A stretch of DNA of 64,000 bases from an uncultured delta proteobacterium (GCA_963823335.1 CAWGLD010000001.1:1-64000); one strand, 5' to 3'. Shown: positions 1-55,548, counted from the stretch's first letter. Notes: a model not told the origin generated them from the sequence alone. Translations and numbers: made by a program.

Positions 1-112
1 TGATGTGCCACAATATCGGTTTGCCCCCGATTTCAACCATGGGTTTTGGCCGCATGGTTGTTTCTTCTGATAGCCGGGTGCCAAATCCGCCAGCCAAGAT
101 GATTGCCTTCAT
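1..112 (-). CDS. rfbF: Glucose-1-phosphate cytidylyltransferase, N-terminal part (runs off window)
   Basis: Manual translation [37 protein letters not shown], a typical RfbF N-terminus. Confidence 0.85.
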
Positions 113-208
113 TCGTTCGTTATCCTTTTTTCGAGAGTGCGTGCTTTTAGTTGCTGTTATTTTTATCTAGGTTGAGCGTTTCAAATTTTGGAAACAAAAA
201 CTTCTCGA

Positions 209-324
209 ATCAACTACCACCCGTGAAACGGGTGGCTTGGATTTCCCCCAAAATGGGGGAAAAACAAAGGAGACGGCACGTCTCCGTAAGTTCAGGTTCG
301 GAACCGCGTGCCAAGCACGCGGTT
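209..324. repeat. Four consecutive hairpins; the first resembles an IS200/IS605-type end
   Basis: caactaCCACCCGT-gaa-ACGGGTGGcttg; tccccc/ggggga; ggagacg/cgtctcc; aaccgcgtgc/gcacgcggtt. Confidence 0.55.
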
Positions 325-453
325 TGTAGAACAATCAAAATATGCTCTGTTTATGGGTACATTTCTTCAGTTTGGATTGACTCTTTGAATATCTACAAAA
401 CAACCATATGGTGTATTGTTCCCACCATATGGTTGTTTGTGGAGAATTAAATT

Positions 454-1327
454 TTATCTCAGTGATTCAATAAAGCAGCTGCCACCGCCGCCGCCGCCGC
501 CGCCATTTTTATCTTTATCTTTATCGTCGTCAGGAACAGCGCAATATGATACCTCATCATTATAATGCTGTGAGATCTCATCAGCTGTCAATACCCTGCC
601 GTATATGGCAACCTCGTCCAGTGTGCCGTTATAGTGGTACCCAGGACCCAGATTGAGCCAACCTATGTTGAGGTCAGCTGTTCAGATTCAAATCCTTCTC
701 CATTGTCGTAATGATGATCTACCGAATCATTTAATACGCCATCTACGTATAGTCTGTTTTCATTTTCGGCAGAATCTCTTACCACAGCAACATGATGCCA
801 TACTCCGTCTGTTAAGTCATCGTTCCCTTCAAGAAACTCTCCTGTCCACCCTTGAACCAATTCCTGTACCATTTGTAGCTATTAAAACAAAAGCAGCCTT
901 GCCGTCCGCCCACAATCCAGTCCACCATTGCATTCGCTAGTTGACACCGTCATCCCTACCCACAACAACTTCATTATCACTAAATGCGTCGTCCGTTCTT
1001 CTGATCCAATATTCGATTGAGAAACTGTCACCAGAGGCCCAATTGAAGGAATCATCTGCCGGCACATTAATGCCTGTGTCAGCACCCAAATTGTTGTGCG
1101 CCATCCACTATCCCGGCGACTGCGGTGGGGCTGGCAGCGCCCACGCCATCGTTGACGCTGCCTACAGAGTCTGAGTAGATATCACCGTTGTCCTCGTCAA
1201 GTGCCCATAAAGAAGTAATGCCATCTGGACATTGAGCATACGCTGGACTTGTTACAAGAAGAACGACACCTAACACACTCCCAATCAAGGATGTATACAA
1301 AGTAGCTCTCCACTTTTTCATCATCAT
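454..1327 (-). CDS. Exported LamG/concanavalin-A-like protein with C-terminal G8-SCFIESLR tag (frameshifted in this sequence)
   Basis: Fragments 1079-1327 (signal peptide, W-x-LDE) and 663-872 (WHHVAVVRD..LYVDG) plus manual translation of the end YCAVPDDDKDKDKNGGGGGGGGSCFIESLR*. Confidence 0.75.
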
Positions 1328-1394
1328 CTTGTCCTCCTTTATTAAATATTCAGTTAATTAATTTGGAAACGCCAAACAACAATGCCAACATTCG

Positions 1395-2984
1395 TTAGTT
1401 GCTGATGGCACTGATAAAACATAACCCACTACCGGAATTATCACTACCATCATTCTCTGGCTTTATATATTGGGGAAGAACTCCTCCAGGCTTGCGAACC
1501 ATACATCAGCCATTTTACCATACCCCGAATCCACGACAAATGGATCCACAACAAGACTTGGATGGAGATCATCATACATATCTCCACCATCATCTGTTAA
1601 CCTATAATCGATGTCGGCATCATCTCTCCATGTCTACCAAAATTATTTTGTCCCCATCGGCGATACGGTTGTTTGCCAGGGTCTCAAGCTCATTATTATA
1701 GGTTGTCGTATCTTGACTGTAATCAACACGATTGATAATTTTCGCGAGAATAACCGTAATATGTTCACTGTATTCATCTATTTCGTCCAGAATATTTTCG
1801 ACACTTGCACTTGTAGTCATTGGTTTTCAGACCGTTTGTGCCAATATGAAGCAATATCACATCTGGAGGATAATATTGCAAATATGGCCCCCTTGTAATT
1901 TCTTCATCCGGTAGAATTGATTAAAACCGGTCTTCAGTAAAACCGCTAGTTGATCGGCTGTAATTCCAGGAAACCCTGCATTATCGTAATCAAATGCCGG
2001 CAACACATCTTGACCTGCTTTTTCACTACCAACAAAATCAACCGGATAATCCGCATTTTCTAACCATAGCCACAAGGGCCAACGATAACCTGTTCGTTCC
2101 GCTGCAGGTCGCGTTTCATTTGAATGGCTATCATAAGTTATCGAATCTCCAAGCGGCATTATTTTCACCGCCGTATTATTCTGACTGCCTCTATTCGTGA
2201 CACCCCCGAATGCACAATACCCCTGGAAAGGTAATAATGCATTTGAATCTCATTTATGGTCAATACACGTCGATAGATAGCAATCTCATCCATCGAACCG
2301 TTAAAGAAAGAGCCTGGTGTGCTTCCATCTATATATCCGATGTTGATAGGTGCTGTGGATTTAAAGCCTGAGTTGTAAATGATATTGTCCGAATCTTCTA
2401 TTTTTCCATCCACATATAGGCGGTTTTCACGACTTTCAGCGTCCCTCACAACAGCAATATGATGCCATTTCATATTGTCCAATGTTTTGTTGCCTTCTAT
2501 AAGCATTGGATTCGCCGTCAGCGGAAGTTAAAGAGAACGCAGCTTTTCCAGATGCGTTGACAGAAAGCCACCACTGCATACTTGTTCGAGCATCGTTTCT
2601 GCCAATTAGAACCTCTCTGCTTGTAGTTCCTGGTAATCTTTTAACCCAAAGCTCAATCGAAAAACTGTCCGTCGCAGCAAAGTCAAACATTTTGTTTGCA
2701 GGGGCATCGATACCGGTATTGATGCCATTGAATTTCTGACTATTGCTATCAACGCCCTGACCGCTAATGACAGGGCAGTTATTTGAACATATGGCAGCAT
2801 TTGCGTATTCTGTTTCGTCTAGATAGCCTTCGAAATCTTGGCTTATTGCGTCCTCATCCAATTTCCAATAGGAGATCATTTTTTCAGGGCACAGGGCTTT
2901 TGCAGTACCAATGTCGATAATCGTCCAGCAAAGGAGAACAGATACAGCAGCAAATAAACGATTCATAGTAACATATTTCCTCAA
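1395..2984 (-). CDS. Exported LamG + SGNH/GDSL hydrolase protein with C-terminal GSGLCFISAISN tag (several frameshifts)
   Basis: Fragments 2436-2984 (signal, YWKLDE), 2165-2506 (WHHIAVVRD, MDEIAIY), 1857-2168 (KIMPLGDSIT) and 1620-1820; manual translation of the end DGSDNSGSGLCFISAISN*. Confidence 0.75.
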
Positions 2985-3174
2985 ACGGTTGCAGATAGTA
3001 AGTTTTCAGAGGTCTTTTCTTCTTCGGACATATTAAATCTTTTAATAATACAATCAACCTTTTTTATGGTTGCGGTTCATATGCACAGATAGCTCCGCCC
3101 CCTCAGTTACAGGCCAAAAGCCACTTTTGTACTGAATGAAAGCAAGATTTGATTAAAAACGATTAACTCAAGAA

Positions 3175-3190
3175 AGCAATTAATGTGCCA
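3175..3190 (-). promoter_or_regulatory. Sigma-54 -24/-12 promoter of the LamG genes
   Basis: TGGCAC-ATTAA-TTGCT on the minus strand. Confidence 0.8.
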
Positions 3191-3540
3191 CGAATCGAAG
3201 CTTCTCAATTTTGGCAACAAAACGGTCAAAGAATCCTCGTAGCAGCTCGACTTTAGCTCGTCGACAAGTCTTGCTGCGAGGAATCTTTAATTTTTTAGGA
3301 AAATCACACCAGCATTGTGAATTTTAATTCATGAAAACTATGTAATTTTCTGCCACATCATGGTAATGTTTGCCAAATATACCGCTATCCTGATATAATG
3401 ACTCAATAAATTTATCTATTCTTATGTATAATTTATCATAATTATATGTTTTTTGCTAAAATTGCAAGATAAAAGTTGTAAAAGATCGAGACGGATGATA
3501 AATTTTACTCAAAATGAGCGTTTCAAATTAGGTTCTATTT

Positions 3541-3556
3541 TGGCATGAATAATGCT
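3541..3556 (+). promoter_or_regulatory. Sigma-54 promoter of the MerR-TPR gene
   Basis: TGGCATGAATAATGCT (GG-N10-GC). Confidence 0.65.
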
Positions 3557-3741
3557 TAATGTTTTTACCATTATTCTTAGCTGCAAAATCTGTGTATTTT
3601 GGATTTGCGGGCCATGGTCTTTTTCGTGGTTTCGTACTTTCGTGATTTCGTGACAAAAAATCTTTTCCTTTTCCGGTTTGTCCGGGTTGGGTTATGTATA
3701 TAAGAACAAGGAATATATTCAGGTAGTTATAGCGCCCTAAA

Positions 3742-5655
3742 ATGAAAAAATTCAAAAACAAAGACATCTCCATATCAGACCTGGCAAATGAATTTCACGT
3801 CAGCAAGGCGGCTATTGAGCTTTATGGTGTTCATCGGTTAATACAACCCATTTCCGGCAAAACAACCCGGCCGGTCTATCGCCCCCTCGATAAAGCACGT
3901 TTAAAATTTATTGCCAGAGCCAAAGAAGCGGACTACACCATTGGCGATATAAAGGACCTGATCGGAGTCCTCGATCTCGAAAAAGACGAAATTGACCAGA
4001 TTGAAGAAAGCCTGGTCTATTGTAAAAATAAATCTGCTGCACTCACAAAGACCCTGGAAGACCTCGATGCCCTGGAACAAATCAATGTCACCTGCGATAT
4101 AGAACTTCTGGAAGCGTATAAAACTGATTTGAACAATTTAAAATATGGACTGGATATTGCGCCCATAACAACAGCTGCGCCGGATCCTATTGCTGAAACG
4201 TCCAGTGCAAAACCCAGAACGCTTGTTTACAGCCATCTTGACGACCAGGTTAAAGCCGCTACGCCTGCTATCGTCCCAAAAAAATCACGAAGGTCTCTGG
4301 CTGTTGTTGCGGGGATCTTTCTGGTGGCCATATCCGGCTATTTATACCTTGGTGGTGACCTTCTTCCTGACATGTCAAATAATTTGGTGGCAACCCCCAA
4401 GGTGGATCCGGTCGAAATGACTACTGAGACAGCCACTTCGAACCAGACCGATGAAATAAATCTGTCTGAATCAGATACGAATACAGATGGCAGTGTCGAC
4501 ACCCTCACCAATAAACGCGCCTCAACAAAAGCGCCGATTTTGTTGAACGACTTCCCGATATTAAAAAATGAGTTGAATTCCCCGTCTACCGACCCCATGG
4601 CAAGCATGCCCGAGACCTATTCAGACAAACAAATCCAGGACACGAAAAATACCCAGGCCCTGCTGGACGTCATCAACGAATCCCGGGAAAAAACGCCCAA
4701 ACCGGGCACGCCCGAGAAAGAAAGGACAGAAGATGTCTTTTTAAAACAGCTGTTTGCCGATATGCAAAAAAAATATGATCAACAGGCACAAATTCAGAAA
4801 CCGACCACCAATGACACTAGCGGAAGAAATGCTGCACCTGAAGAAATGAGCGAGACAAAGGAAGCCCAAGACCTCACGCCCGTGGACATTCCAAACGACG
4901 CTTCCCAGACTGACAAAACCATGCCCACGACAACAAAGACGTCCCCGATAATAACCACAACTACACCAGAAAAAGCTGCTCCTCTGGTAGTTAGTCGGGC
5001 ACCTGCATCTTTGAATACCGATACACCATCCACGAACACGCTTGCACCTCCGCAATCCGTACCAAGCCCCAAACCCGCGTCACCGGTTATCCGGCCAAAG
5101 TCTTCGACAGAACAGCCAACCGCTTCAACAAAGAAAGCGGAAACATCCATACTTTCAAAGCGTGATGAATCAGCGAGCAAAGTAATCACACCGCCGAAAC
5201 CCAAGCCGCTACCTGAACCTGAGCCCAAACCGGATCCCAAGCCTAAACCTAAACCTGAACCCAAACCAAAGGCAATTCCTCAAAAACCAGCCAATCCGGA
5301 AGCATTGAAATGGACCCAGAAAAGCTATGAGAGCGTGATGGCCGACGATGCCGGCCAAGCGATCATCGCGGCGTCCGTAGCGATCACACTCGATCCGAAC
5401 CTGGTGAATGCCTATATCAATCGCTCATGGGCCTACAGCAAAAAAGGGCTCTACGACAGAGCTATCCAGGATTGTGACAAAGCGCTCGACATCGACAATG
5501 ACAATGCGCTGGCTTACAACAACAGGGGACTGGCCTTTCAAGGTAAAGGCGACATGGACAAGGCCAAGGCGGACTACGAGCGGGCATGTAAGCTGGGCTT
5601 TGATATCGGCTGCAAGAATTATCGGGAAGTTGTAGAAAGCAAGCTTGCTGAATAA
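3742..5655 (+). CDS. MerR-HTH / single TM / Pro-Thr-rich linker / TPR protein
   Basis: N-terminal MerR-like ISDLANEF...RLKFIARAK..YTIGDIKDLI; KKSRR followed by a hydrophobic helix; PEPKP run; TPRs AYINRSWAY and AYNNRGLA. Confidence 0.8.
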   Translation: MKKFKNKDISISDLANEFHVSKAAIELYGVHRLIQPISGKTTRPVYRPLDKARLKFIARAKEADYTIGDIKDLIGVLDLEKDEIDQIEESLVYCKNKSAALTKTLEDLDALEQINVTCDIELLEAYKTDLNNLKYGLDIAPITTAAPDPIAETSSAKPRTLVYSHLDDQVKAATPAIVPKKSRRSLAVVAGIFLVAISGYLYLGGDLLPDMSNNLVATPKVDPVEMTTETATSNQTDEINLSESDTNTDGSVDTLTNKRASTKAPILLNDFPILKNELNSPSTDPMASMPETYSDKQIQDTKNTQALLDVINESREKTPKPGTPEKERTEDVFLKQLFADMQKKYDQQAQIQKPTTNDTSGRNAAPEEMSETKEAQDLTPVDIPNDASQTDKTMPTTTKTSPIITTTTPEKAAPLVVSRAPASLNTDTPSTNTLAPPQSVPSPKPASPVIRPKSSTEQPTASTKKAETSILSKRDESASKVITPPKPKPLPEPEPKPDPKPKPKPEPKPKAIPQKPANPEALKWTQKSYESVMADDAGQAIIAASVAITLDPNLVNAYINRSWAYSKKGLYDRAIQDCDKALDIDNDNALAYNNRGLAFQGKGDMDKAKADYERACKLGFDIGCKNYREVVESKLAE

Positions 5656-5674
5656 AATCGTGTGACGATTTTAT
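5652..5674. repeat. Palindrome ATAAAATCGT-N3/4-ACGATTTTAT (also at about 30627, 38099 and 63209)
   Basis: Four copies read directly from the sequence. Confidence 0.75.
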
Positions 5675-5684
5675 AAGGTTACAT

Positions 5685-6914
5685 ATGATAAATCACAAAT
5701 GGTCGGTCGTACTTTTGCTTGTTTTTCTCCACTTGTCTCTCAATTCCTGGGCAGACAACGTAAATCCAACCAGTGCCAAGGGCCCGTCATCCATCGCAAA
5801 ACCCCTGAAGACCATAACAATCCAAGTGGCGTCTCTAAAATATGAAAACAAGGCCGGGCAAGAGTTGACACGTCTCAAATCCCATGATCTGGACGCATTT
5901 GTCCATCATGAAAGCGTTGCCGAAAAAGGAATGTGGTATCGCATCTATGTGGGAAAGTTTGAAAACAGAGACGAAGCCAAAAAATTTGCCCAAAAAATTA
6001 AAGATCGAGGGATAATATCGGGGTTCTGGATCAAACAAATCGAGATACCTGTCGATCCGGTAAAACCCTCACAAACAGCAATAAGTACAACCGAGAAACC
6101 CGATACAAAAACCGACACGCTGCATGAAAAACAAGTGCCTCCAGCGGCAGTGGTCGAAACACCTAAGACAGTTCTTCCGTCGGAGACAAAACCATCACGC
6201 TCTCAACCATTGGCAGAAAAGTCGAATGAGCAAACACTATCACCCCCTGTACCCCCGGTCGAAAAACCAAAAAGGACCATGACGAAAAAAGAGCTAAAGG
6301 AGATTTTTCCCGCAGAGGACATTCATGATAAGCAACCCATCTCACCAGTACAGGGCATCGCGGTTCAGGGTCCCGGCGAGCAGGAAGGAAGCAGCAAGTT
6401 TTCAGTGGGGGTCAAGTCAAGCTACTTTCTTGCGTCAGATACGAAAGATTTCAAAATTAAACGAACCGACGGAGGCGACCAGTATTCCTGGTCGATCAAA
6501 AGCCCAAAGGTTTACAACTCGCTGCTGTCAAACTATCAAATCAATCCGACAATCTCAATCGAGGCCGGTATCGAAAGGGCTTTTTTTACAAAACTCGATA
6601 TCTGGCATCTCACGATGGGTCCAAAATTTGAATTCAAAAAGATCGGTATGTTAACCCCCTATGCAAAAGGCAGTCTGGTTATGGGTCATATGAAATGGGA
6701 TGACGCCCCCGGAGATTTTGACACGGCCTGGGGATGGGAAGGGGGATTCGGTGTTTCCTTCAGCAGATCGAACATACAATTTGGGCTTGAAACATCCTAT
6801 CGGGCTATTACATACGATTACAACCGGCCATCTGACAACGACGTTACAGCGACGGATAACCAGATCGATTTTTCAGGATTTGCGTTGTCGGCAACAATGC
6901 GTTACCGGTTCTAA
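5685..6914 (+). CDS. SPOR-domain + outer-membrane beta-barrel protein
   Basis: Signal peptide; SPOR IQVASL...WYRIYVGKF..RDEAK; Pro-rich linker; amphipathic strands ending in MRYRF. Confidence 0.8.
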   Translation: MINHKWSVVLLLVFLHLSLNSWADNVNPTSAKGPSSIAKPLKTITIQVASLKYENKAGQELTRLKSHDLDAFVHHESVAEKGMWYRIYVGKFENRDEAKKFAQKIKDRGIISGFWIKQIEIPVDPVKPSQTAISTTEKPDTKTDTLHEKQVPPAAVVETPKTVLPSETKPSRSQPLAEKSNEQTLSPPVPPVEKPKRTMTKKELKEIFPAEDIHDKQPISPVQGIAVQGPGEQEGSSKFSVGVKSSYFLASDTKDFKIKRTDGGDQYSWSIKSPKVYNSLLSNYQINPTISIEAGIERAFFTKLDIWHLTMGPKFEFKKIGMLTPYAKGSLVMGHMKWDDAPGDFDTAWGWEGGFGVSFSRSNIQFGLETSYRAITYDYNRPSDNDVTATDNQIDFSGFALSATMRYRF

Positions 6915-7087
6915 GCGGCACACAGAAACCAACTAAATTGACAATTATCTAATTGTATAATATAGACATTCTTATCTGTCCTTCCACCAACCAAAAGTGA
7001 AACTTCCAATTTAAAGAATATTGTATTCGGAAATATTTTCAGAATGTAGAACGCTCACCTTAGGTCCAAATTATTTTACTGAAACAT

Positions 7088-7819
7088 ATGGACAAATCTG
7101 AAATGCCCCTTGCCGCTGAATTGAAAAAGACATTGCCTCCGGAAAATCAAACCAATTTCCTTTCAAATCTTAAATACCTTATGGTTATTTCCAAGGCCTA
7201 TTTAGAGAAATACCACCTTGACGATGATCAAAAAAAAGCCACGATAAGAACCGCAAATGCGGTTTTTAACGAATGCAGAAAATGGGAAGGCTTATTCAAT
7301 AAATATAGATCCCCTTTCAAGAAAAAAAAGAAAAATGAAAGCGACCATTTCTTCTATCAGCGTGCTATACTGCTGTCTGTAATGATTAAATCTTATTGTA
7401 TAGGAAATCTCATGGGAAATAACAGAAATAAATCATTAGCAAAAACAACCGATTTTTTGTGTGGTGCGCTGAATATTAAAGTGGGCAACACGGATTTTGA
7501 AAAACATGGTTTAGTGCTTCAAACCAAAGAGATCTCTCAAAATGAGCAAAAAATGAATAGCATCAAAGATAAGAGAAGGTATGAAAGGATAGAATACGTT
7601 ACATCTGTGAGTGTCATCATGGACAAGAATAAATATATAACGGAGTTACTGAATCTTAGCCTTGGCGGTGCCTTTATTTCTGCTGACAGCATTCCACATA
7701 TAGAAACAGGAAAACAGGTTTCATTAGGGATTCCATTTGTGAACAAACCTAATGAAATCGAAATTAAAGCGACCGTTCAACGACTTTTTGGAATGGGTGC
7801 AGGTGTCGAGTTCTTTTAA
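7088..7819 (+). CDS. PilZ-domain protein with an uncharacterised N-terminus
   Basis: RRYER and NLSLGGA motifs, ending in GAGVEFF. Confidence 0.75.
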   Translation: MDKSEMPLAAELKKTLPPENQTNFLSNLKYLMVISKAYLEKYHLDDDQKKATIRTANAVFNECRKWEGLFNKYRSPFKKKKKNESDHFFYQRAILLSVMIKSYCIGNLMGNNRNKSLAKTTDFLCGALNIKVGNTDFEKHGLVLQTKEISQNEQKMNSIKDKRRYERIEYVTSVSVIMDKNKYITELLNLSLGGAFISADSIPHIETGKQVSLGIPFVNKPNEIEIKATVQRLFGMGAGVEFF

Positions 7820-7820
7820 A

Positions 7821-8058
7821 AGGATCATCTCAAAAAGAGTTGATCCAAATTAAGGGTTCAAGGATTCCAGGGGTCCAGGGTTCGAGTGAGATGAAGCGAG
7901 ACATCAGCTAATTGCTTAAGAATTATATGAAAAAGGGAAAGCTTCAGGAATCAAGAGAGGAGCTCGGAGATGAAGAGAGAATGCTAAAAGCGATGATCAA
8001 ATCCCTGGAAAACAAACACTTGAATCCTTGAATCCTGGACTCCTTGAACCCTTTCTCC
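7821..8058 (+). mobile_element. Decayed four-helix-bundle gene cassette, copy 1
   Basis: Homologous to 35359-35677; encodes LLKNY fused to MKKGKLQ...RMLKAMIKSLENKHLNP*; flanked by inverted 8-mer arrays. Confidence 0.7.
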
Positions 8059-11000
8059 TTAAAAAATGTTGAAACGGTAGGATATTTCTAAAGCAATACC
8101 CGACGTGTCCAGCTTATCGTCTGCGGAATAACCATCCTTAGGCCTGTCCGCATCGTGTTTATAAAAAGCATAGCTCAACCTGACTTCCACGTTCCCTTTC
8201 TGGAACCCTGTACCGATTGAAAACCCCATTGCGGGATCATATCCGGAAACAGGATAATCCAAATCAGCATCAATATATCGGTAGCCAATGCCTGCGAGCA
8301 CCAGTGGGCGCATGGCGCCTATCCACCTTGGGTTGTATTCTTTCGCGTAATACACACCGGAAAGAGAAAAGGTATAGCTGTTTAATGTGGAGTCGTCACC
8401 CGAGGGGGCGTTTTTTATGTTTCCGCTGTAAAAATCGTAGGCAAAGGTCAACTCCACTGAAAAATTATCTGAAACGCCATAACTCCCTCTCAAAAAAGGA
8501 TAAATAGCGCTGTCGACTTCATTGGTGATGGACTCGCCTTCATCGGAAGCTTTGACCTCAGATCCGATATATGTGTAACCAAGACCGGCATGTAAATACC
8601 ATGGTTTGCCCTTTTTGGGAGAGTCAGCGGTGGTTCCGGCGCTGCTGACTGCCGCCGGGGTATAAGCATCCTGCTTTGTTTCGAGTTTTCTTAACTCCTC
8701 CAATGTTGATTGATCTTCCTGGAGAGGTGTTGGCACGCCGACATCAGGAACGGTTTCGGCCGACTCGGACTGGGGGGGGGCCCCGGCCGCAGCACCTTCG
8801 GCGGCGTATGAATTGGAAACGAACAGGGATGCCCCCAGCAGGATCGCTGTTACAAGCATCAGCATGCTAAGGCGATGACGTACAAAACGATTCAGGGAAA
8901 AGATAGAGACAACAGCCAGAAAAAAAAAACCGATACCTCTTGTCGGATTCGATGGCCTCCCTTCTGATCGTGTGGTCTCGATAAAACAGCCACCGCCGCC
9001 ACCATACGAGCTATCATCACCCCCCGCCGAAGAACCCGGTGGTTCTGTAACGAAAGAATCATCGAGACCATAGTCGGTACCTGCGTCATTGGTAGCATAG
9101 GCACTCACATAATAGGTGGTCTCGGGCAAAAGACCTGTCATCCTATACTTAAATACATAAGGCACAGCACCTGAATAGGGCCCCATAGATCTACAGTCAT
9201 CATTATCGTCTAAGGTTGGCCCTGGATTTGTGCTCCAGCAAAACCCATGATCATCGGGTGAGGGTTCTCCCAAGTCTGTAATACTGCCATTCGCCGTTGC
9301 CTTTGTATCGCTGATAAGACTGACGGCAAAGGTGGTCACCGTAGGTTCTATAAAAGTGGTAAAAACAACTTCACTACCATAAACAGTTGTTAGGGCGTTT
9401 GTGGCATAGGCCCGCACGTAATAGGTCGTTCCAGGCGACAAGCCTGTCAAATCCGAAGTGAACGTACCCTCTGCCGGCACCCCTTCCTTCGTAAGGCTGT
9501 CAGCGGTGGTGGGAGGCCTGCCACGATCTGTCCCGGTGGTGTTCCAGCAGATGCCGTGCTGTGTGGCAGCGGGTGCCCCCAGGTTCGTGATCTCGCCCCC
9601 GCCTGTTGCGGATGTTTGGTCGATATCGGTTACTTCATCCGTTCCCACGGCCATGGCATCCGGGTCGGACCTAAATGGTTGTGTCGACCCATAGACTGTG
9701 CCGGCACTATTGGTCGCATATGCCCGCACATTATAATTCCTGAAAGGTACAAGGGGGCTGATGACGGATTCAAACGGATGAGGAACCTGGCCGAGGTAGG
9801 CGCCTAACCTTGATATGCCGTCATTGTTATTGATGGTCGGGATTGTTGGCGCTCCGCTCCAGCAAATCCCATGTTGCGTTAAAGTAGGTATACCCCGATC
9901 GGTAATGGTACCGTGTCCAATAGCATCATCTTTGGTTACATCGCTCACCGCCTGGGTCGTCACCACAGGGAGTTTCGGCAACGTTGTAAAGGTCAACTGA
10001 TCGCCGTAGACCGTAGCGACATCGTTGGTGGCATAGGCTCGGATATAGTACCTGGTATCCGGTGTAAGCCCGTTGATATTGCTTGTAAATACGTCAGCCG
10101 AGCCAGCAGCCCCCTCATCGGTAGAATCAAGACTTTGGGCAAGTGTCGAAAATGGAATCGTATTCCAGCAAACACCGTGCTCCGTGGGATTGGGCGCACC
10201 AAGAACGTCAAAGTCGCCACGTCCCAAAGCAGTGGTCGTACCGATATTGATCACTGACAGTGTCGACACTTCCGGTGCTTGTTGCTCTGTTCTGAAAGAC
10301 ACCTGGTTTCCGTATGATGTCCCGCCAGCATTGGTGGCGTAGGCACGCACATAGTAAGTTGTATTGGGTGAAAGACCGGTAATATTCGCTGTAAAGGCAC
10401 CCGTGACGTACGCCGCACCCTTATCCGTAGAACTATCGGCAGTCGTTGGTGTCCCGCCGGTATTCCAGCAAACTCCGTGCGCCGTGGGGTTCGGCACCCC
10501 CAGACTGGTGATATTACCGTTACCGGTGGCCGTAGAGATGGTTATGCTCGTTACTGCCTGGGTCGTCACTGTCGGTGGCTGCTGGTTCGTAGTAAACGAC
10601 ACCTGACCTCCGTATGATGTCCCGGCCGTGTTGGTGACATAAGCCCGCACATAGTAAATCGTATTGGGTGAAAGACCGGTAATGTTCGCTGTAAAGGCAC
10701 CCGTGACGGACGCTAGCACCCTCATCCGTAAGGCTATCACCAATCGTCGGTGTTCGGCCGGTATTCCAGCACACACCGTGCGCCGTGGGATTCGGCACCC
10801 CCAGACTGGTGATATTGCCGTTGCCGGTGGCCGTGGTGGCGGTAAGGTCGCTAACTGCCTGGGTTGTAACCGTGGGCGCCTGCGCTAAGGTCTTAAACGA
10901 CACTTGGTTGCCGTATGATGTATCGCCCCCGTTGGTAGTGGCATAAGCCCGCACAAAATAAGTCGTATTGGGTGAAAGACCGGTAATATTCGATGTAAAG

Positions 11001-11275
11001 GCACCTGTGATGGACGTGAACCCTCATCCGTAAGACTGATCACCAATCGTCGGTGTTCCGCCGGTATTCCAGCAAACACCGTGCGCCGTCGGATTCGGCG
11101 GTGCTGCTCCCAGATCGGTGATATCGCCGTTGCCGGTGGCCGTCGTTGTGGTGATGTCGCTCACATTTTGGGTTGTTACTGTCAGAGTTTGCGCCAAAGC
11201 CGTATACGGTATCAGCAGAAAAAACAGAAATAAAAAAAGTAGAATGGCAAATTTATGTGATATTTTCAGTTTCAT
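8059..11275 (-). CDS. Surface protein: signal peptide, 7 FN3-like repeats, GGGGGCFIET, TM, second signal peptide, OM beta-barrel (frameshifts in the 5' repeats)
   Basis: ORFs 11024-11275, 10520-10954 and 8059-10776 join into one gene; repeat signature HGVCW..YYVRAYATN..YG; ends EISYRFNIF. Confidence 0.8.
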
Positions 11276-11625
11276 AAACCCTCATCATTATTTAATGACC
11301 GTCCCTGTGCAAGGGTTGGCATACAGACCTTGTTTCAAGTTTAGGACTAAGATAATATGGTTCGATCAACACCTAAAATTAAAAATAAACGCTTGCTATA
11401 TATGATGAATCCAATCATTCTCCGTGACAACCGTTCCATCATTCCAGCAAAAATAATTGTGCGAACACGACACATTCTTATCTCTACAATAATTTCAATG
11501 ACTTATAAACGAATGTATATAAATATCACAAAATCGTGCATTTGACTACCCATATTATTATGGCAAACGATTACCTAATTTACAGCACAAAATTACCTAA
11601 TTGCATGGCATTAACATATTTAATG

Positions 11626-11690
11626 ATGTAGCGCAGAGCTTCAGCTCTGCTGGTACACCATTTTGGCAGGTCTGAAGACCTGCGCTACAT
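11626..11690. repeat. REPIN-like inverted pair of GTAG-type REP palindromes
   Basis: GTAGCGCAGAGCTTCAGCTCTGC...GCAGGTCTGAAGACCTGCGCTAC; second copy inverted at 13708-13768. Confidence 0.7.
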
Positions 11691-11736
11691 TACATAACGC
11701 TGCGTACTATCTCAAGTTAATGACAGTGAATATGGA

Positions 11737-12895
11737 TCATCGCTTGCGCCGTTTGAAATATAAAAATGCCAAAACAACAGCGGAAAAAATAATCACGCCA
11801 TGCATTAACACCATGTTGGCGGTGTTCAATGTCTCTGATAAAACATAACCCATAATCATCTCCACCAATACCAGCAGATCCGTCCGGATTGTTTACAGTT
11901 TTGAATGACACTTCATTGCCATAGGATGTGCCGGCTGTATTGGTCGCATACGCATTTACATAATAGGTCATGTCTGGTAAAAGCTCTGTTAGGACAAATG
12001 AGAAAGGCCCGGTCTCATTAGCTTCTCCCTGCTCAGTTATATAGTCACCCAGGTCAGGCATGCCGGTTGTGTTCCAGCAAAAACCATGCTGAGTCGGGTT
12101 AGGTGAGCCGACATCTATAATCGTTCCATTCATCGTGGCACTGATGCTGCTTATATCGTCAATGTCCTTTGTGCTTACAATGGGTGGAGAAGAGCTTGTC
12201 GAAAACGTCACCACGTTTCCGTAAGCGGTGCCTTCATCGTTGGTGGCATACGCCCGGACAAAATATTTCCGGTTGCTTTTGAGGCCTTTGATCTCGGAGG
12301 TAAACGGGCCGGTTACATAAAGCGCGCCCTCCTCGGTTCTTTTGTCATCGATGGTCGGAGAACCATCCTCGTTCCAGCAAACGCCATGTTGTGTGGGATT
12401 AGATATGCCCAGATCTTCCACGGTGCCATGACCCAGGGCCGATTTTGACTTGATGTCCGTTACGGGTTGGGTCGTCACCGTTGGGATGAACCTCGTTGTG
12501 GTAAATTCCAGCACATCGCCGTAAGATATGGCTCCCCACCATTCCCTGGCATAGGCCCTGACAAAATAGATTGTCCCGGGCTCCAGACCGGACATATCAG
12601 AAGAGAAATTAACAGCATTCCTTAAGGGCCCTTCGGCCTCGTTGGTACTGTTATCTTCTTCCAGATTGGGATCACCCGTGGTATCCCAGCAAACCCCGTA
12701 TGCGGTAACATAAATTGGATTCGAAACAACACCGTTGCCCGTGGCATTATTATATGAAATATTTGTAACATTTTGCGTTATGGCGGTGGCTGCGGAGGCC
12801 GGATTTTGAAGGACAAGGAGCAGCAACAGCGACATCACACAGTAACTAATTGTTTTTATATTCATTTTTAACTTTATCAATCCCATTCTTGGCAT
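11737..12895 (-). CDS. Exported protein with 3 FN3-like repeats and a CFI-TM-basic sorting tail (one extra base near 11836)
   Basis: ORF 11717-12895; removing one base after CFI gives CFIETLNTANMVLMHGVIIFSAVVLAFLYFKRRKR* with stop at 11737. Confidence 0.75.
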
Positions 12896-12903
12896 ACTTT
12901 CTT

Positions 12904-12939
12904 TAGGATCTTCTCCCCATTTGGGAGAAAGGGTTCAAG
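12904..12939 (-). mobile_element. Isolated right end of the four-helix-bundle cassette
   Basis: taggatcttctcccc-atttgggagaaagggttcaag matches 35360-35400. Confidence 0.6.
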
Positions 12940-13027
12940 AAATGCGCGAATATCACTTGTTTTTGCAAAGGGTTTGTCCGCCGGCAGCACGACGTGTTTA
13001 ATCAGTATCTTCAATCACTGACAACCA

Positions 13028-13851: not shown

Positions 13852-14091
13852 TCACTTTCTTCGTATGATGAGCAGACCAACCAAACCCGTTCCTAATAAA
13901 AAACCAAGGGTTATTAATTGTCGCTGGTCTATCCGTGCAGATTCCCGGGAGTCATAAGAAATCAAACTGTTAGACAAGGGCTGTGACGTGACGCTCGACG
14001 TGTCCAGATAGTCGTTATCGATCTTTGCCGCATTACCTATCAGGCCGACAAAAACAATTAAAAGAAATACTATGATAAAGAGTTTTTTCAT
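13852..14091 (-). CDS. 79-aa membrane protein with a PEP-CTERM-like TM/basic tail
   Basis: N-terminal signal-like helix; C-terminus FLLGTGLVGLLIIRRK. Confidence 0.65.
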   Translation of the reverse strand: MKKLFIIVFLLIVFVGLIGNAAKIDNDYLDTSSVTSQPLSNSLISYDSRESARIDQRQLITLGFLLGTGLVGLLIIRRK

Positions 14092-14528: not shown

Positions 14529-15515
14529 CTAACGATTTTTCCTTTTTGTGAAAAATTTCTCCCGGTACTCGGGGACCAGTTTCATGGGCGGCCGCTCGTG
14601 CTGTTCCAGTGGGCGAATGTCCGATCTGATCTGATTTTGAAAAAGACTGTATTGAATCATTTCATCGAAAAGATCCTGGCGAATAGCAATTCCCCCCTGT
14701 CGTGCCATGCGATTCAAAAATGTCCTGATGATCACGAAGGCCATCCGGCCCAGCGCCTTGGTATCCTGATTTTTGTGAACCCGCCGGTCCAGGTCTACCT
14801 GGGCCATGACATCAAGACCCCATTTTTCATGGATATCCATGAGCATACCGGTTTCCACGCCGTAACCGATCTGAAAGGGGATGCTTTCAAACACACTGCG
14901 ATACCCTGCGTATTCTCCCGAAAGCGGCTGTAGAATCTGGGTCAGGTCCGGCATAAAAAGCGAAAAAAGAGGCCGGGTCACCAGTTCCGTCACCCGACCG
15001 CCTCCGGTGGGACGCAGCTTGTTATCCCCCAATGAGATGGGGCGGTCGTAAAAAGCCTTGGTAAAACGGATTCTATCTGTAAGCAGAAGCGGCCCCAGCA
15101 GTCCGTAAGCAAAGCGATGGTGGATATTCTTGATGTCCGCATCAATGTAAACAATGATATCACCGTGAGTCACATGGAGCGCCTTCCACAGATTTTCCCC
15201 TTTGCCTTTGAATTTCTCGAGATGCGGCAGGATATTGTTGGCCTCATGCACGTCTACGTCGAAAGAGCGGGCTATGTCGCGGGTTTGATCCGTGGATCCG
15301 GAATCGATCACCACGATCTCGTCCAACAGGGGATAGCGGATCATGAGTTCCGATTTCATGATGATGATCTCTTTGGCAATCGTTTTTTCCTCGTTCAAGG
15401 TGGGAAAGCACAAAGATATGGTGACCTTTTTGCGTTGCTTCTCCGCCACCAGACGGCCAATCTTCTTGAAGGCTGAATGGTGGAATGTGTTTGATTTGAT
15501 CCATTTTCTATTCAT
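14529..15515 (-). CDS. gpgS: Glucosyl-3-phosphoglycerate synthase
   Basis: PTLNEE, IDSGSTD, GKGENLWKA, DADI, GGRVTELV.RP, QPLSGEYA, GYGVE. Confidence 0.85.
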   Translation of the reverse strand: MNRKWIKSNTFHHSAFKKIGRLVAEKQRKKVTISLCFPTLNEEKTIAKEIIIMKSELMIRYPLLDEIVVIDSGSTDQTRDIARSFDVDVHEANNILPHLEKFKGKGENLWKALHVTHGDIIVYIDADIKNIHHRFAYGLLGPLLLTDRIRFTKAFYDRPISLGDNKLRPTGGGRVTELVTRPLFSLFMPDLTQILQPLSGEYAGYRSVFESIPFQIGYGVETGMLMDIHEKWGLDVMAQVDLDRRVHKNQDTKALGRMAFVIIRTFLNRMARQGGIAIRQDLFDEMIQYSLFQNQIRSDIRPLEQHERPPMKLVPEYREKFFTKRKNR

Positions 15516-16665
15516 CGCACACTCCGTTGTCCATAGCCATGAGCAGCGCCGGTATCTGGGCAACCCCTTTGTACATAGGCTCGATTTCGATCATGGCGTC
15601 ATTCTGGTGAAAATTGTCCCCCCAGGTAATGCCCAGGGTAATGGCCGGAATTTTCCGGTGTAGAAAAATGGACAAAGTCGTTTCACTCGGTTCGCTGAAA
15701 ATCTCCACCTCCAGGTGATTCAGTATCCGGGCTGCACACTTGATCAAAGGGTGGTTGTGGTTCAGACGGGTTGCATTCAGATTGCTGATGCGGTGGAGCT
15801 TCAGCTCCACATCAAACATTTTGTTTATCCTTTCGACAATATCCCGTATGTCAGCATAGAGCGTCCTCACCATATCATCCGAGTCGCTTCGAATCTCGAA
15901 CCCGATGTTGGCATCGTAGGCGATATTGCCGTGGTTGAACCCACCGGAAATCCTGCCGATCACAATCTGCGTCCTGGGTTTCTGGGGCAGCCCCAATCCC
16001 AGGATGGCGTTAATCACCTCGTTGATGACCAGGATGGCATTGGGCTTGTAACGTCGCCTCTCGTGATTCTCCACGGCAATACTGCAAGATATCTCACTGC
16101 GAATCATTCCGTAGGAAAAATAATTGAGCCGCCCCAGTTCGATGCTTTCCAGGCATATGGCTCCCCGGATGGGCGAAGGCCAATGGCTGAGAAGCCGGCG
16201 AATCCCTTTTTGGTTGCCCCGGCCCAGGGAAAGAATCGGCGCCACCAGTACGATATCCGATTCAAACCGCAGTTCGAGGCGTTTGAAAATCTCCGGCAGG
16301 GAGACCAGCACACCGACAGCGGCCGAATTGTCCGAAACCCCGATGCCGCTGATGATCTTGTCCGTCACCTCGTAATGCAGTTCCTCTTCCAACTCGGAAA
16401 ACGTATCTAAGTGTGCAACCACAAATAGGGGTGGTTTAGTCGAAGCGGTTCCACGGATCACCCCCATGGGGTTTCCGTAATCGTCGATGGCACAATCGTC
16501 CACCTGAAATTCCGACAGACGCTCCACTAGATGTTCTGCACGTTGTTTTTCATGAAATGTGGGTGCAGGAATCTGACCCATGAGCACGATGTTACTGATG
16601 ATAATCTCCCGGATCTCGCGGATCTTGTCCACAAATAGCGGAAGTGCATCGAGGTATTTATCCAT
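15508..16665 (-). CDS. M20/M25/M40 family metallo-hydrolase
   Basis: PAPTFHE, VVAHLDT, GVSDN, dimerisation domain; overlaps the gpgS start. Confidence 0.75.
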   Translation of the reverse strand: MDKYLDALPLFVDKIREIREIIISNIVLMGQIPAPTFHEKQRAEHLVERLSEFQVDDCAIDDYGNPMGVIRGTASTKPPLFVVAHLDTFSELEEELHYEVTDKIISGIGVSDNSAAVGVLVSLPEIFKRLELRFESDIVLVAPILSLGRGNQKGIRRLLSHWPSPIRGAICLESIELGRLNYFSYGMIRSEISCSIAVENHERRRYKPNAILVINEVINAILGLGLPQKPRTQIVIGRISGGFNHGNIAYDANIGFEIRSDSDDMVRTLYADIRDIVERINKMFDVELKLHRISNLNATRLNHNHPLIKCAARILNHLEVEIFSEPSETTLSIFLHRKIPAITLGITWGDNFHQNDAMIEIEPMYKGVAQIPALLMAMDNGVCDE

Positions 16666-16737
16666 GACATCTCCTATCCCGAACATTTCATGAAACTTGA
16701 CAAGAATCGATCATGTTTGCGAAATACCCAGGTTATG

Positions 16738-17595
16738 TTAAGAATTGTCGGTATGGGCAATCAATTGCCGCAAATCGGTGATAATCATGTCCGGCACAAG
16801 ATGCCGGCAGCAGGCATCACCGGATCTTCGCCGCAGGGAACGCTGGTCACCTGCAAACAAGGCGGCTTGAAATCCGACCGTCTTGGCCGGCAGGATATCG
16901 TTGCGCATGTCATTGCCCACATACAAAACAGAGGCCGCAGAACCCCCCCGCCGGGTAATGACATCCAGCGCCTTCTCAAACATGAAACAGGATGGTTTGG
17001 CGGATCCGAAACGATAAGAAAAAAATGTCAATTGCGGGTCAAATCCACACCTGTCCAGAGATGTACCCAGCAGGTATTCCAGCAGACGCGGGGTGTAAAA
17101 TTGTGCATTGGAGATGATTCCCATCAACAGCTCCTGACCCCGGCAAGCGGACAGCAGGTCCCCAAGTCCCGGCATGGGGTAAACCGGATTAACCGACAAT
17201 TCGTATTCCAGGGCAAAGGCTTTCACCCGGTCTGTGTCACCCGTGCCGAGCAAGGTCTGCCAGATCTGAACGATGTCGATTTCTGGATAGTCGTTCCCTT
17301 CCTGCCGAAGGCTTTTATGAACATTTTCTATGGCCCGATGCAGGTCGTCCATAAGATTTCCCGGCCTTCTGTCGATGCCATGGCGCTGCAGCACACCGGT
17401 TAGCACCTGTTTACGGTCGCTGTCCACGGCAAGGAAGTCCATTTCTCCCGACCCGCTGATCACAAGCGTACCGTACACATCGAACAGGATAACCTTCACC
17501 CGCCTCAACTTTGAAAGCCCGATGGGTGCCTCTCCCGTTGAAATCGGTCTCAGGGGATGAATGTGTCGTTCGAACACGGCATCCTCATTCCTCAT
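16738..17595 (-). CDS. HAD-superfamily phosphatase
   Basis: FDVYGTL, ISNAQ, KP, YVGNDMRND. Confidence 0.8.
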   Translation of the reverse strand: MRNEDAVFERHIHPLRPISTGEAPIGLSKLRRVKVILFDVYGTLVISGSGEMDFLAVDSDRKQVLTGVLQRHGIDRRPGNLMDDLHRAIENVHKSLRQEGNDYPEIDIVQIWQTLLGTGDTDRVKAFALEYELSVNPVYPMPGLGDLLSACRGQELLMGIISNAQFYTPRLLEYLLGTSLDRCGFDPQLTFFSYRFGSAKPSCFMFEKALDVITRRGGSAASVLYVGNDMRNDILPAKTVGFQAALFAGDQRSLRRRSGDACCRHLVPDMIITDLRQLIAHTDNS

Positions 17596-18991
17596 ATGCC
17601 CCCCATTTTAACAAGGAAAATCGTTCCAGATCGAAAAACGCGTCCAGAAGGACCTGTTTGTTTAGACGCTGATGAACCGGCTGATGAACAACCCGTTCGT
17701 ATATCGAGAGGAGCCGCTCCCGGTACTTTTCCATACCAAAGTGAGCCACCACGGATCTGCGGTTGTTTTCCAGCATCTCAGGCGCATCATCTCCCGGTGG
17801 CAAAAAGGAAATCAGGGGGTTCAGAGAAGCCAGGTGTGCCTTGGCCCCCGGCTGCGACAGCACGTGTGAGAGAACCTGTCTTTGGTATCTTTCGCTCAGC
17901 AGACCGAAATCAACCACGCCTTGACATGACAGATGGGCCAGATGTTGATGAATACGTTCCGGGTCGACGGGATGGCGATATGTGTCTGCAGCATGAATGA
18001 CGGTCCTCTGCCAGTCCTGAAAAAATTGATCCGCATCAAACCATGCCGATGGGACATCGAGCCGGTCATAGAGAAAATCCAGACAAAGACCGTTTTCCTC
18101 GAAATCCTTACAGATATCCCCGAGCCTTCGCCCCCGCAACATCTTTCCGGCTGTCCAGGGTTCGAGGAAGGAAAAACCAAACCCCTCGGTTATGCTGGTT
18201 GTGATCATGTATGACGCAGCCCCGACCAATCTGGCGAAGCCATGCCGCCGTCCGATTTCGAAGTTGACATTCAGATGTTTTTTTTTCACATAGGCCCGCC
18301 AGTCCCGGTAGCTCGCCATATCCCGCTGGCTGTTTGGCGGCAGTGTAACGCCCAGGTGTTGACCCGGCGCCAGATACAAAGACAGCAGTATGGCTTCGCC
18401 GATATTTTTTCGCCGAATAGCACGGACCGGGTAAAGCACAAGGGATTTTGGGAAGTGTCCCGTTTCAGCAGGCAGGGGGTCAATCGCGTTGGGAATCAGG
18501 TGCACCCCGCTATCCGTCAGACCTGCCTTGACCACAATTCGGCGGTCCCGGGTGTTGATCACCCCGTAATGGCAATCCACCGGATAAGATTCCAGGGAAT
18601 AACTATCCGGTCGCCCGTCTTCTGCAAAATCGTGAATGTGTAAAAACAAATTGACCCCTGATGCCTGCAGTCGCTTGATGCAGCGGATAAAATTCCGGTT
18701 CTTGGCCAGTGTCGGGTTGTGGATATGCAGTACGTCACAGCCCCCCGGCCACACTTCGGACAGCGCTTTCAACACACGCTCGGCAGTGACATCCGCTGCC
18801 GGGGATGGAGTGCACGGCAGTTCGTACCCGAGCCCGGGGATCTCCACCACGCGACAGGGCAACACGGTTCCGGCCTGTTCGCCGGTCAGAACGAGGACCT
18901 CGCAGTTGCCCCGCAAGGCTGAAATCTGCCGTTTCAATACAGTGGTCACACCCCCTGTTTTGAGATGGTAATGGAGAATGGCAATCTTCAT
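17585..18991 (-). CDS. GT4-like glycosyltransferase
   Basis: HYHL..GGV, YPVRAIRRKN, EGFGFSFLEPW. Confidence 0.8.
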   Translation of the reverse strand: MKIAILHYHLKTGGVTTVLKRQISALRGNCEVLVLTGEQAGTVLPCRVVEIPGLGYELPCTPSPAADVTAERVLKALSEVWPGGCDVLHIHNPTLAKNRNFIRCIKRLQASGVNLFLHIHDFAEDGRPDSYSLESYPVDCHYGVINTRDRRIVVKAGLTDSGVHLIPNAIDPLPAETGHFPKSLVLYPVRAIRRKNIGEAILLSLYLAPGQHLGVTLPPNSQRDMASYRDWRAYVKKKHLNVNFEIGRRHGFARLVGAASYMITTSITEGFGFSFLEPWTAGKMLRGRRLGDICKDFEENGLCLDFLYDRLDVPSAWFDADQFFQDWQRTVIHAADTYRHPVDPERIHQHLAHLSCQGVVDFGLLSERYQRQVLSHVLSQPGAKAHLASLNPLISFLPPGDDAPEMLENNRRSVVAHFGMEKYRERLLSIYERVVHQPVHQRLNKQVLLDAFFDLERFSLLKWGAYEE

Positions 18992-19101
18992 GATGCTTCC
19001 CCGAATAAATTCGTTTCACGAATCTAGTAAGCATGACTTTGTGGCGCTGAAAGCCTTGAAAATGGCGCATCACAAATAAAAACGCACCCACTCAGAACAA
19101 A

Positions 19102-19117
19102 TGCTATTTCCATGCCA
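19102..19117 (-). promoter_or_regulatory. Sigma-54 promoter of the GT-HAD-M20-gpgS operon
   Basis: TGGCATGGAAATAGCA. Confidence 0.65.
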
Positions 19118-19436
19118 AATGCCAAATAGCTCCGTGTTATGTAAAAAAACAGCAGCACGGTTGTCGTAAATTTAAATGAAATATCTAATCGTTATGACAA
19201 GCAAGATACAGAAAGATACTGTTTATGACCTGCTTGAAGAGGCTCCCTATACAGTAACGGCAATGAACCGCTGTTTCGGGGGCAATGGCGAAATAAATTA
19301 TTATTTCTTATGGTTAAACTGAAGGAATGATTTCGAATTTTTGCGAATCAGACATCTATATTTTTATAAATTGGCCAGAACCGTTTGTCAAAAGCATTTC
19401 GGATTTTTTTTCGACAAGCCATACCACCCTCCCATT

Positions 19437-21140: not shown

Positions 21141-21263
21141 GGCAATGCGCCTCATTAAAATATGTGGACGCACAATAATATTGACTTTTTTAGTGTTTGG
21201 TGTTTTTTTTTACGGGTTAAATCGAACCAAGGTAACCTATCTATCGAACGTGCGGAAACCACG

Positions 21264-22991: not shown

Positions 22992-24122
22992 ATGGATGCC
23001 CTGATTATCATGGTTCTGGCGTTTATCGGATACATCGTCATGTATCCCCAGTCTGTCCTGGCCGTCTGGGTGGAAGTGCCCATCGCCATATACCTGGGCT
23101 ATCTCATCTATAAGAAAGGGGCCAACGTCATGACATGGTCCATTTATGCCGTGATTGCCATGTATGTGTGCGTGTTTCTCGGTCCCTACCTGCCCTTCAA
23201 AATGCCTGCCATTGCCGGCATTCCCCCCACAGGTGTGTGGACCATTATCCTGCTGGCATACGGGTTTATCGCGTCCACCCTACCGGTAACCACCCTGCTG
23301 CAGCCCCGTGATTTCATAAACTCCCATCAGCTGGTGATTGCCATGGCGCTGCTGGTTCTGGGTGTGATGGTGGCAGCCTTCGGCGGCAACCTGAACATCG
23401 TAGCGCCGGCCGTACAGGCAACCCCGCTGGAAGCTCCCCCCATGTGGCCGTTCCTTTTCATTACCATCGCCTGTGGTGCAATCTCGGGCTTCCACGCCCT
23501 GGTCTCTTCCGGTACCAGCGCCAAACAGGTCCGCAATGAAAACGATGCCTTGTTTGTGGGCTACGGCTCCATGCTGATGGAAGGCGCCCTGGCAACCCTG
23601 GTCATCATTGCCGTGGCTGCAGGTATTGGCATGGGATATACAACCAAGGCGGGTGAAACACTTACCGGTGTGGCTGCCTGGACCACCCACTATGCTTCCT
23701 GGGCGGCGGCTAACGGTCTGGGCTCCAAGATTTCGGCCTTTGTGGACGGTTCGGCCAACATGATCATGACCCTGGGTATTTCCAAAACGTTCACCCTGGC
23801 CATCATGGCTGTTTTCGTGGCATCCTTTGCCGGCACCACCCTGGACACGGCCACCCGGATTCAACGCTATGTGATCGGTGAACTGGGACAAAGTCTCAAG
23901 CTGAACTGGTTAACCGGCCGCTACGTGGCCACCGCGGTGGCCGTCGGAAGCGCTCTGATCCTGGCTTTTGCCACCGGGGCCAGTGGCAATGGTGCCCTGA
24001 AACTGTGGCCGCTGTTTTTGGGGTTGCCGGACCAATTCTATACCGCTCATTTTTTGCCCATTCACACAGACATGTTCATGAAGTTCCGCCTGAGGCGCTA
24101 TTCGTATTCGAACGCAATCTAA
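22992..24122 (+). pseudogene. cstA: Carbon starvation protein CstA with internal and C-terminal deletions
   Basis: LLQPRDFIN, PFLFITIACGAISGFHALVSSGTS, GYGSMLMEG, TTLDTATR; N-terminal helices missing; breaks after LWPLF. Confidence 0.75.
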
Positions 24123-48923: not shown

Positions 48924-48939
48924 AGCAAAGCCTGTGCCA
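48924..48939 (-). promoter_or_regulatory. Sigma-54 promoter
   Basis: TGGCAC-AGGCT-TTGCT. Confidence 0.8.
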
Positions 48940-54306: not shown

Positions 54307-54339
54307 AACAAACCTCTACCTTGTGATTACACGCCCATG

Positions 54340-55404: not shown

Positions 55405-55548
55405 AATCTTCCCCTCGCATGGAGCTATTGGTCTTGGCGCTGGTGTTCCTTACGTTATAAACGCTCATTATCAAGTTCGAGCGGTTGTTCGACCTAATTT
55501 TCCATAGCAGTTTCGGAACATTATTCTGACAAACGCTATAACAAGCGG

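Follow-up and report, generated by a model that had tools for sequence, protein, structure and literature searches.

CFI tags on four neighboring exported proteins

The stretch of DNA analyzed here, 64,000 nucleotides from an uncultured delta proteobacterium (GCA_963823335.1, CAWGLD010000001.1:1-64000; hereafter the window), carries near its start four minus-strand genes, P1 to P4, whose translations share a C-terminal feature. In each of them, an acidic or Gly-rich linker followed by the tripeptide Cys-Phe-Ile (CFI) closes the passenger. All four N termini resemble signal peptides, as judged by eye from the translations, and in all four the motif stands where the passenger of the exported protein ends, preceded by a low-complexity linker. 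The original prediction, made from this DNA alone, had described these CFI tags as a candidate Cys-based protein-sorting system; all four tags were found where it had placed them, on the minus strand.

P1 (454..1327) is a LamG-type protein with a match to the Pfam model Laminin_G_3, and its short tag reads GGGGGGGGSCFIESLR (454-504, stop codon at 454-456). P2 (1395..2966) combines LamG with a GDSL/SGNH-like part and also has a short tag, GSGLCFISAISN (1395-1433, stop codon at 1395-1397). The passenger of P3 (8980..11275), which consists of a signal peptide, FN3-like repeats and an acidic/Gly linker, ends in GGGGGCFI (8980-9003) and reads on as GGGGGCFIETT, with the CFI codons at 8988-8980. P4 (11737..12895) has three FN3-like repeats and a long tag; its GGDDYGLCFI lies at 11837-11866, with the CFI codons at 11845-11837, and the reading frame breaks after it. 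The tag is attached to unrelated domains, but the passengers are not four different ones as had been stated: P1 and P2 are both of the LamG type, and P3 and P4 share FN3-like repeats.

The clustering of CFI tags at this locus is beyond chance. A six-frame search of the window with the pattern G-x(0,1)-CFI-[ES] returned three matches, all inside positions 1-13000; P4, which reads CFIR in its unrepaired frame, escapes this pattern. In 300 block shuffles of the window, the mean number of matches was 0.1 and the maximum 1: one match occurred in 30 shuffles and two in none.

The position of the tag was also evaluated in the 286 proteins (477,802 residues) collected in this study, a set biased towards homologues of the queries. 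There, 26 of the 35 CFI tripeptides fall within the last 60 residues of a protein, a region holding 3.6% of the residues in the set, and a Gly is found no more than three residues before the Cys in 25 of these 26 C-terminal CFIs versus only one of the nine located elsewhere. The passengers that bear the tag are unrelated (LamG, GDSL-like, FN3-like and cadherin/Big_9), and their linkers drift while the tag stays conserved.

Short and long forms of the tag

Judged from the sequences, there are two genuine forms of the tag. In the short form, seen in P1 and P2, the Cys is followed by six or seven residues to the stop codon, without a membrane helix. In the long form, seen in P4 after frame repair, CFI is followed by a spacer of 8-17 residues, a membrane helix and then, usually, a basic cluster. 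The proposed use of the tag in three topologies is supported: it occurs with a helix, without one, and in a third arrangement.

Relatives of both short-form proteins were collected. A phmmer scan of 1.84 billion representative sequences with the tail piece of P1 listed 150 matches, seven of which have a Gly run and a C-terminal CFI. Among these seven are P0160, an intact P1 orthologue of 290 amino acids that is 79% identical and ends in GGGGGSSCFIESLR, and one long-form CFI protein (P0175). A search with the N-terminal piece of P2 among longer proteins gave 13 matches, three of which are orthologues ending in CFISAI[TNS]N. Their tails are TCFISAITN in P0122 (518 amino acids), LCFISAINN in P0123 and WCFISAISN in P0124, all intact, and P0122 is encoded on the contig of L001, one of three related loci introduced below. 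P2 relatives carry a GDSL/SGNH-type lipase domain (Pfam PF00657/PF13472) in addition to LamG. Further LamG proteins end in LCFIGAISM, LCFVSAMLN or GCFIETVFEGSFDQ, and in P0129, a Thermodesulfobacteriota protein found in the LamG search, GGCFIGT is followed by a spacer and a helix. The distance from the Cys to the end of the protein is exactly seven or eight residues in 11 of the 13 short forms. We considered whether the short forms are truncated long forms and rejected this: intact relatives share the same ends, and no helix with a basic cluster lies beyond the stop codons of P1 and P2 in any frame.

A scan with the P4 alignment found three related loci, L001, L002 and L003 (~54 kb). Aligned at the DNA level with these three, the window P4 has one extra base directly 3' of the Ile codon of CFI. 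Past this insertion, the sequence at 11737-11835 encodes ETLNTANM, a membrane helix and KRRKR before the stop codon; the next frame, from 11835, reads ETLNTANMVLMHGVIIFSAVVLAFLYFKRRKR. The frame repair that the original prediction had made in P4 is therefore sound, since intact relatives end in the same kind of tail and the extra base is evident against all three loci. We examined the best 120 of 1,776 matches to P4, and the 12 that have CFI near the C terminus are the closest ones (71-92% identity to P4; alignment A1). Eleven of these 12 are intact and end in CFI-x-[TE]-L-[NH]-[TA]-x-N-M, a helix and K/R-R-[KR]-R, and the remaining one stops early. Across the 13 P4-type sequences in A1, C351, F352 and I353 are invariant and the preceding linker is variable. 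The Cys signature, the membrane helix and the basic cluster are all present in repaired P4 and in its 11 intact relatives.

P3 fuses the tag to a putative membrane hairpin and an outer-membrane barrel

P3 had been predicted to end after its membrane helix; instead, it runs on in frame to an outer-membrane protein (OMP) beta-barrel. Beyond CFIETT, a hydropathy scan places a putative membrane hairpin at 8803..8979 on the minus strand. It starts with a 14-residue spacer, ETTRSEGRPSNPTR, and a hydrophobic stretch of 15 residues, GIGFFFLAVVSIFSL, at 8893-8937; the basic loop NRFVRHRLS occupies 8866-8892, and a second hydrophobic segment, at 8803-8865, ends in SNSYA. The C-terminal part (8059..8802, minus strand) begins with a linker rich in Pro, Ala and Glu (8653-8802) and continues as a barrel ending in ISYRFNIF. 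Pfam identifies this part as PF13505 OMP_b-brl over residues 67-260 of 263 (34.2 bits versus a gathering score of 28.7), and its L001 counterpart scores 27.9 bits, just below the gathering score.

The tag, hairpin and barrel are uninterrupted in six sequences: the window, L001, L002 (with frame errors), P0285 (Desulfobacterales bacterium, 1,065 amino acids), P0286 (Thermodesulfobacteriota bacterium, 1,121 amino acids) and P0287. None of the three CFI residues varies among five P3-type sequences. The passengers do vary: the window and P0285 have FN3-like repeats, and L001, P0286 and P0287 have cadherin/Big_9 repeats, with the C-terminal module unchanged. We rejected the possibility that P3 represents two genes that have lost an intervening stop codon: all six sequences read through, and there is no conserved start. 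Because the junction holds Met in some sequences and Val or Ala-Leu in others, P3 is one protein. From their sequences, the two hydrophobic segments probably form an inner-membrane hairpin, with SYA|AEG as a putative signal-peptidase site. An AlphaFold2 model of the C-terminal module built from five sequences was too poor for use (mean predicted local distance difference test 32.9, predicted template modeling score 0.20).

P3 alone among the four resembles a type V autotransporter in its overall layout: a single polypeptide starts with an N-terminal signal peptide, has a passenger rich in repeats and finishes with an outer-membrane beta-barrel. It differs in that a sorting-type tag and a pair of hydrophobic segments separate its passenger from its barrel, and Pfam found only the small PF13505 type of barrel and no autotransporter domain in it. 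This conserved fusion of tag, hairpin and barrel is the part of the finding most worth pursuing.

In six sequences, a single reading frame couples the passenger to the barrel. This also bears on a different role for the tag, in which the lone C-terminal Cys would be joined not to a lipid but, covalently or as a disulfide, to a partner in the envelope: a P3-type barrel, a polymer, or the protein with SPOR and OMP beta-barrel domains encoded in the intervening region (5685-6914, plus strand, intact). The barrel of the latter protein resembles that of P3 (22% identity, E value 2e-6), which places two related small barrels at the locus. The Cys of CFI also appears to be free in LamG relatives, where the other two Cys residues, in an N-terminal CP[DE] and a C-terminal SYC, look paired. 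However, the barrel part of P3 contains no Cys, making a disulfide to that barrel impossible, and neither P4 nor the short forms have a fused barrel. A complex prediction for the P3 barrel (residues 145-329 of A2) and the linker-CFI peptide (residues 1-34) scored 0.02 against a mark of 0.32 and counts neither way. We consider such docking unlikely.

Frame disruptions in the tagged genes

About 13 frame disruptions are distributed over the ~7.4 kb of the four tagged genes in the window: three in P1, located by tblastn against the intact relative P0160, six in P2 (seven frame pieces), about three near the 5' end of P3, and one in P4. The three genes between P2 and P3 (3.9 kb) have none. On the one hand, this distribution, together with the intact state of P1, P2 and P4 relatives in other records, is what would be expected if the locus had decayed here, with a tag that is real in relatives, four pseudogenes in the window and no sorting in this organism. 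On the other hand, several of the breaks coincide with short runs such as G5 or A4, as is the case with indel-type consensus errors; P3 and P4 of the L002 locus have the same kind of breaks; and the broken pieces of P1 retain 70-87% amino-acid identity to P0160. Furthermore, no fewer than two genes elsewhere in the window have a split appearance. One is CstA (22992-24119, plus strand), where the match begins at profile position 140, and the other is a histidine kinase (43261/43703, within 43261-44500, minus strand), where a response-regulator/HisKA open reading frame (ORF) is apart from its HATPase_c ORF. Because these two genes also look split, frame problems are not limited to the tagged genes. 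Decay of the locus is a possible explanation, which we hold to be less likely than not.

The CFI-box model and known sorting signals

The minimal CFI motif had been presented as new; it is in fact already catalogued. NCBIfam contains a model termed CFI-box putative sorting motif-containing protein (NF041763, sort_motif_CFI), which has 14 positions and comprises a Gly run, CFI and four more residues. P1 scores 17.8 bits with a 30-residue tail and 15.4 bits with a 75-residue piece (cutoff 15.9), and thus the shorter piece is above the cutoff. P3 reaches 11.5 bits, under the cutoff, and the model misses P2 and P4, whose tags have no Gly run and read G-L-CFI or S-G-L-CFI; this comparison is one of model name, length and scores. 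Among 15 tails of relatives, 13 matched NF041763 at an E value of 10 or lower, four of them at or above the cutoff and nine more at 9.2-15.7 bits. It is the sole sorting-type model that matches the 14 P1/P2-type tails (13 of 14 at the same E value), whereas the P4-type tail of P0002 is matched by Heimdall-CTERM alone, under its cutoff. The model matches both short and long forms of the tag. In the alignment, position 8 of the model is taken by the Cys, and the six residues after it complete the model, which is exactly the point where the short forms stop. No model named CFI-box-CTERM, a family invoked in the original prediction, matched the long tails at E values up to 10; their helix and basic end show sub-cutoff similarity to Heimdall/Loki-CTERM alone. 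A full-text literature search found no publication on the CFI-box motif.

Among the closest known systems are those in which MYXO-, JDVT-, Synerg- and CGP-CTERM signals are used. According to the account of the myxosortase MrtX in PMC11980579, cleavage of MYXO-CTERM by a CPBP protease, its dependence on the Cys and its role in surface anchoring have been demonstrated; myxosortase, reported in 2025, is described there as the first proven enzyme for Cys-containing C-terminal sorting signals. A related analysis (10.1101/2023.06.07.544157) argues that the Cys side chain is modified before cleavage and relates the prokaryotic proteases of Cys signals to Rce1; the string CFI does not occur in its main text. 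As portrayed in these sources, such signals have a short signature that is rich in Gly/Ser and contains an invariant Cys, then a helix and an Arg/Lys cluster, as do P4 and the first helix of P3, and their hosts are Gram-negative bacteria with many surface proteins. The CFI tag differs from them in that the short form of P1 and P2 has neither the helix nor the basic cluster, and in that no CPBP gene is located near the CFI locus in the window or in the three related loci.

The short form is also reminiscent of a eukaryotic signal. The CaaX box consists of a Cys and hydrophobic residues near the C terminus, has no membrane helix and is trimmed by Rce1-type (CPBP) proteases. By analogy, the short CFI form is similar in having a Cys and hydrophobic residues near the C terminus and no helix; it differs in having six or seven residues after the Cys versus three, and in its location, which is the periplasm versus the cytosol. 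We know of no prenyl or other transferase for the CFI-box. The lipobox of bacterial lipoproteins has the consensus L-[AS]-[GA]-C; a lipobox reading of the tag was rejected by eye, as the residues before the Cys (GGG, SGL, YGL and GSS) misfit this consensus.

Neighboring genes, related loci and regulation

The SPOR-barrel gene is one of three intact plus-strand genes, all identified by Pfam, that lie between P2 and P3 (3742..7819). The other two encode a MerR-HTH/TPR membrane protein (3742-5655) and a PilZ-domain protein (7088-7819). The order of the three is kept in L001, which is syntenic with the window and contains, in this order, a small TPR lipoprotein, P4, P3, the PilZ, SPOR-barrel and MerR-TPR genes and the start of P2. 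L002 is similar to the window, whereas in L003 the TPR gene and P4 are retained and the contig then ends. A search for related loci with the PilZ-domain protein gave 44 pattern matches, none of which was confirmed. Between its PilZ and SPOR-barrel genes, L002 encodes an extra small exported protein (19018-19401, plus strand) that is absent from the window and ends in DSSESAGCFI, an end that is possibly cut by a frame error. In L001 only, an IS200-like Y1 transposase-domain protein (6052-7020, plus strand) is encoded upstream of the syntenic block.

A zero-mismatch match to the sigma-54-type -24/-12 consensus, the 16-mer TGGCACATTAATTGCT (3175-3190, minus strand; a consensus match only), lies ~210 bases upstream of the start of P2, and the identical 16-mer is found upstream of the P2 orthologue in L001 (20298-20313, plus strand). 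The window has a second perfect site at 48924-48939 (minus strand), and sigma-54-like sites overall number 41 versus 33.8 expected, with no overall enrichment. The description of this region as a sigma-54 locus is supported by the perfect site upstream of P2 and its counterpart in L001, but not by the abundance of such sites.

The reading of the adjoining genes as a polysaccharide operon is not supported. The genes past 14.5 kb begin with a glucosyl-3-phosphoglycerate synthase (NF010496, 371.8 bits versus a cutoff of 262), which points to compatible-solute genes, and continue (14532-22526 in all) with a weakly matching ArgE/DapE-like hydrolase, a HAD hydrolase, an unassigned ORF of 468 amino acids, an alpha-amylase-family enzyme and a GT1 glycosyltransferase. 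From its gene content, this looks like a compatible-solute cluster; it adjoins the locus in L002 and is absent beside it in L001 and L003.

Two other features of the window were recorded. An ORF of 79 amino acids (13852-14091, minus strand) has an N-terminal hydrophobic segment and ends in TLGFLLGTGLVGLLIIRRK, that is, a helix followed by RRK; this tail resembles the PEP-CTERM type minus the PEP motif. The ORF is 77-81% identical in L001, L002 and L003, and its sole match is to the Pfam model VPDSG-CTERM, at 13 bits. At 53311-57143 (minus strand), two EB_dh (ethylbenzene-dehydrogenase-like heme-binding) proteins flank a cytochrome b, beside a Rieske protein; together they make up a membrane redox module that has no connection with the CFI tags.

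The CFI tag as a putative sorting signal

Reading the CFI tag as a sorting signal is reasonable in light of the sequences compared here. We propose that it acts as a processing or sorting signal because it combines an invariant core containing a lone Cys with a disposable linker, unrelated passengers and a fixed tail length. On balance, we lean towards the interpretation that P1 to P4 are members of the CFI-box class, a C-terminal Cys signal that would be carried by exported surface-type passengers of Desulfobacterales-like bacteria and would be modified and/or cleaved. As an interpretation of the locus as a whole, this retains the conserved Cys-containing motif that ends unrelated passengers and gives up its novelty and the polysaccharide operon.

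In such a scheme, the passenger would be exported via Sec, and an enzyme whose gene lies elsewhere in the genome would then modify and/or cleave it at the unpaired Cys. If MYXO-CTERM and myxosortase are a guide, a lipid would be joined to the Cys and everything downstream of it removed, and the processed passenger would stay attached to the cell surface. The helix of the long form would hold the precursor in the inner membrane until processing. The short form would be recognized without a helix, like a eukaryotic CaaX tail. The basic cluster that follows the sorting helix of P3 may serve a second purpose, as n-region for a segment inside the protein that resembles a signal peptide, and cuts at the tag and at SYA|AEG would yield the passenger and a separate outer-membrane barrel in a 1:1 ratio.

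Several observations weigh against this interpretation. Cleavage, lipidation and surface exposure of CFI proteins are proposed by analogy. All four tagged genes are frame-broken in the window. The short form has no membrane segment and offers no obvious grip for an intramembrane protease, and P0129 has a long form without a clear basic cluster. NF041763 gives no match to P2 or P4, and no tail matched the MYXO-, JDVT-, Synerg-, CGP-, PEP- or GlyGly-CTERM models at an E value of 10 or lower, in scans where HMMER filters may lose very weak matches. Finally, Pfam detected no CPBP, rhomboid, exosortase or sortase family member in the 43 window ORFs of at least 110 amino acids, in agreement with the earlier statement that no sortase-like enzyme is visible in the window; the same families were not found in the 13 ORFs of the region of the finding or in the 25 ORFs of the related loci.

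Some of these observations would fit an alternative in which the tag is not a sorting signal at all: the CFI end would cap the structure in a conserved way, mark the protein for degradation or quality control, or be recognized by a partner in the periplasm, and the long-form helix would simply anchor the protein in the membrane. No enzyme is linked to the tag in the window or the three related loci, the helix and basic cluster by which known sorting domains are defined are missing from the short form, and the literature search was negative. Yet the same three-residue core follows low-complexity linkers on unrelated domains at a fixed tail length, which is typical of a processing signal, and the curators at NCBI chose the name putative sorting motif for NF041763. 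We regard this alternative as quite improbable and retain the sorting-signal interpretation.

In a bolder version of the sorting-signal interpretation, the CFI-box would work in the periplasm like a CaaX signal and without need of a helix, with lipidation of the Cys and trimming of the last six or seven residues. P3-class proteins would be bacterial polyproteins, in which one reading frame supplies a surface passenger, the sorting tag of that passenger and an internal signal peptide that launches a dedicated outer-membrane barrel. This version is a long shot; if true, it would amount to a surface-display route without a described counterpart.

C-terminal sorting signals determine what a bacterium displays on its surface. 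The CFI-box is a curated motif for which we found no paper and, to our knowledge, no enzyme is known. This locus and its relatives provide a compact test set, in which a single core occurs in helix-less, helix-bearing and barrel-fused forms, with intact orthologues and a regulator site that is likely shared. If the helix-less form is processed, recognition of the tag would need no membrane insertion, and two cuts in P3 would make it a rare example of a bacterial reading frame that gives rise to two envelope proteins.

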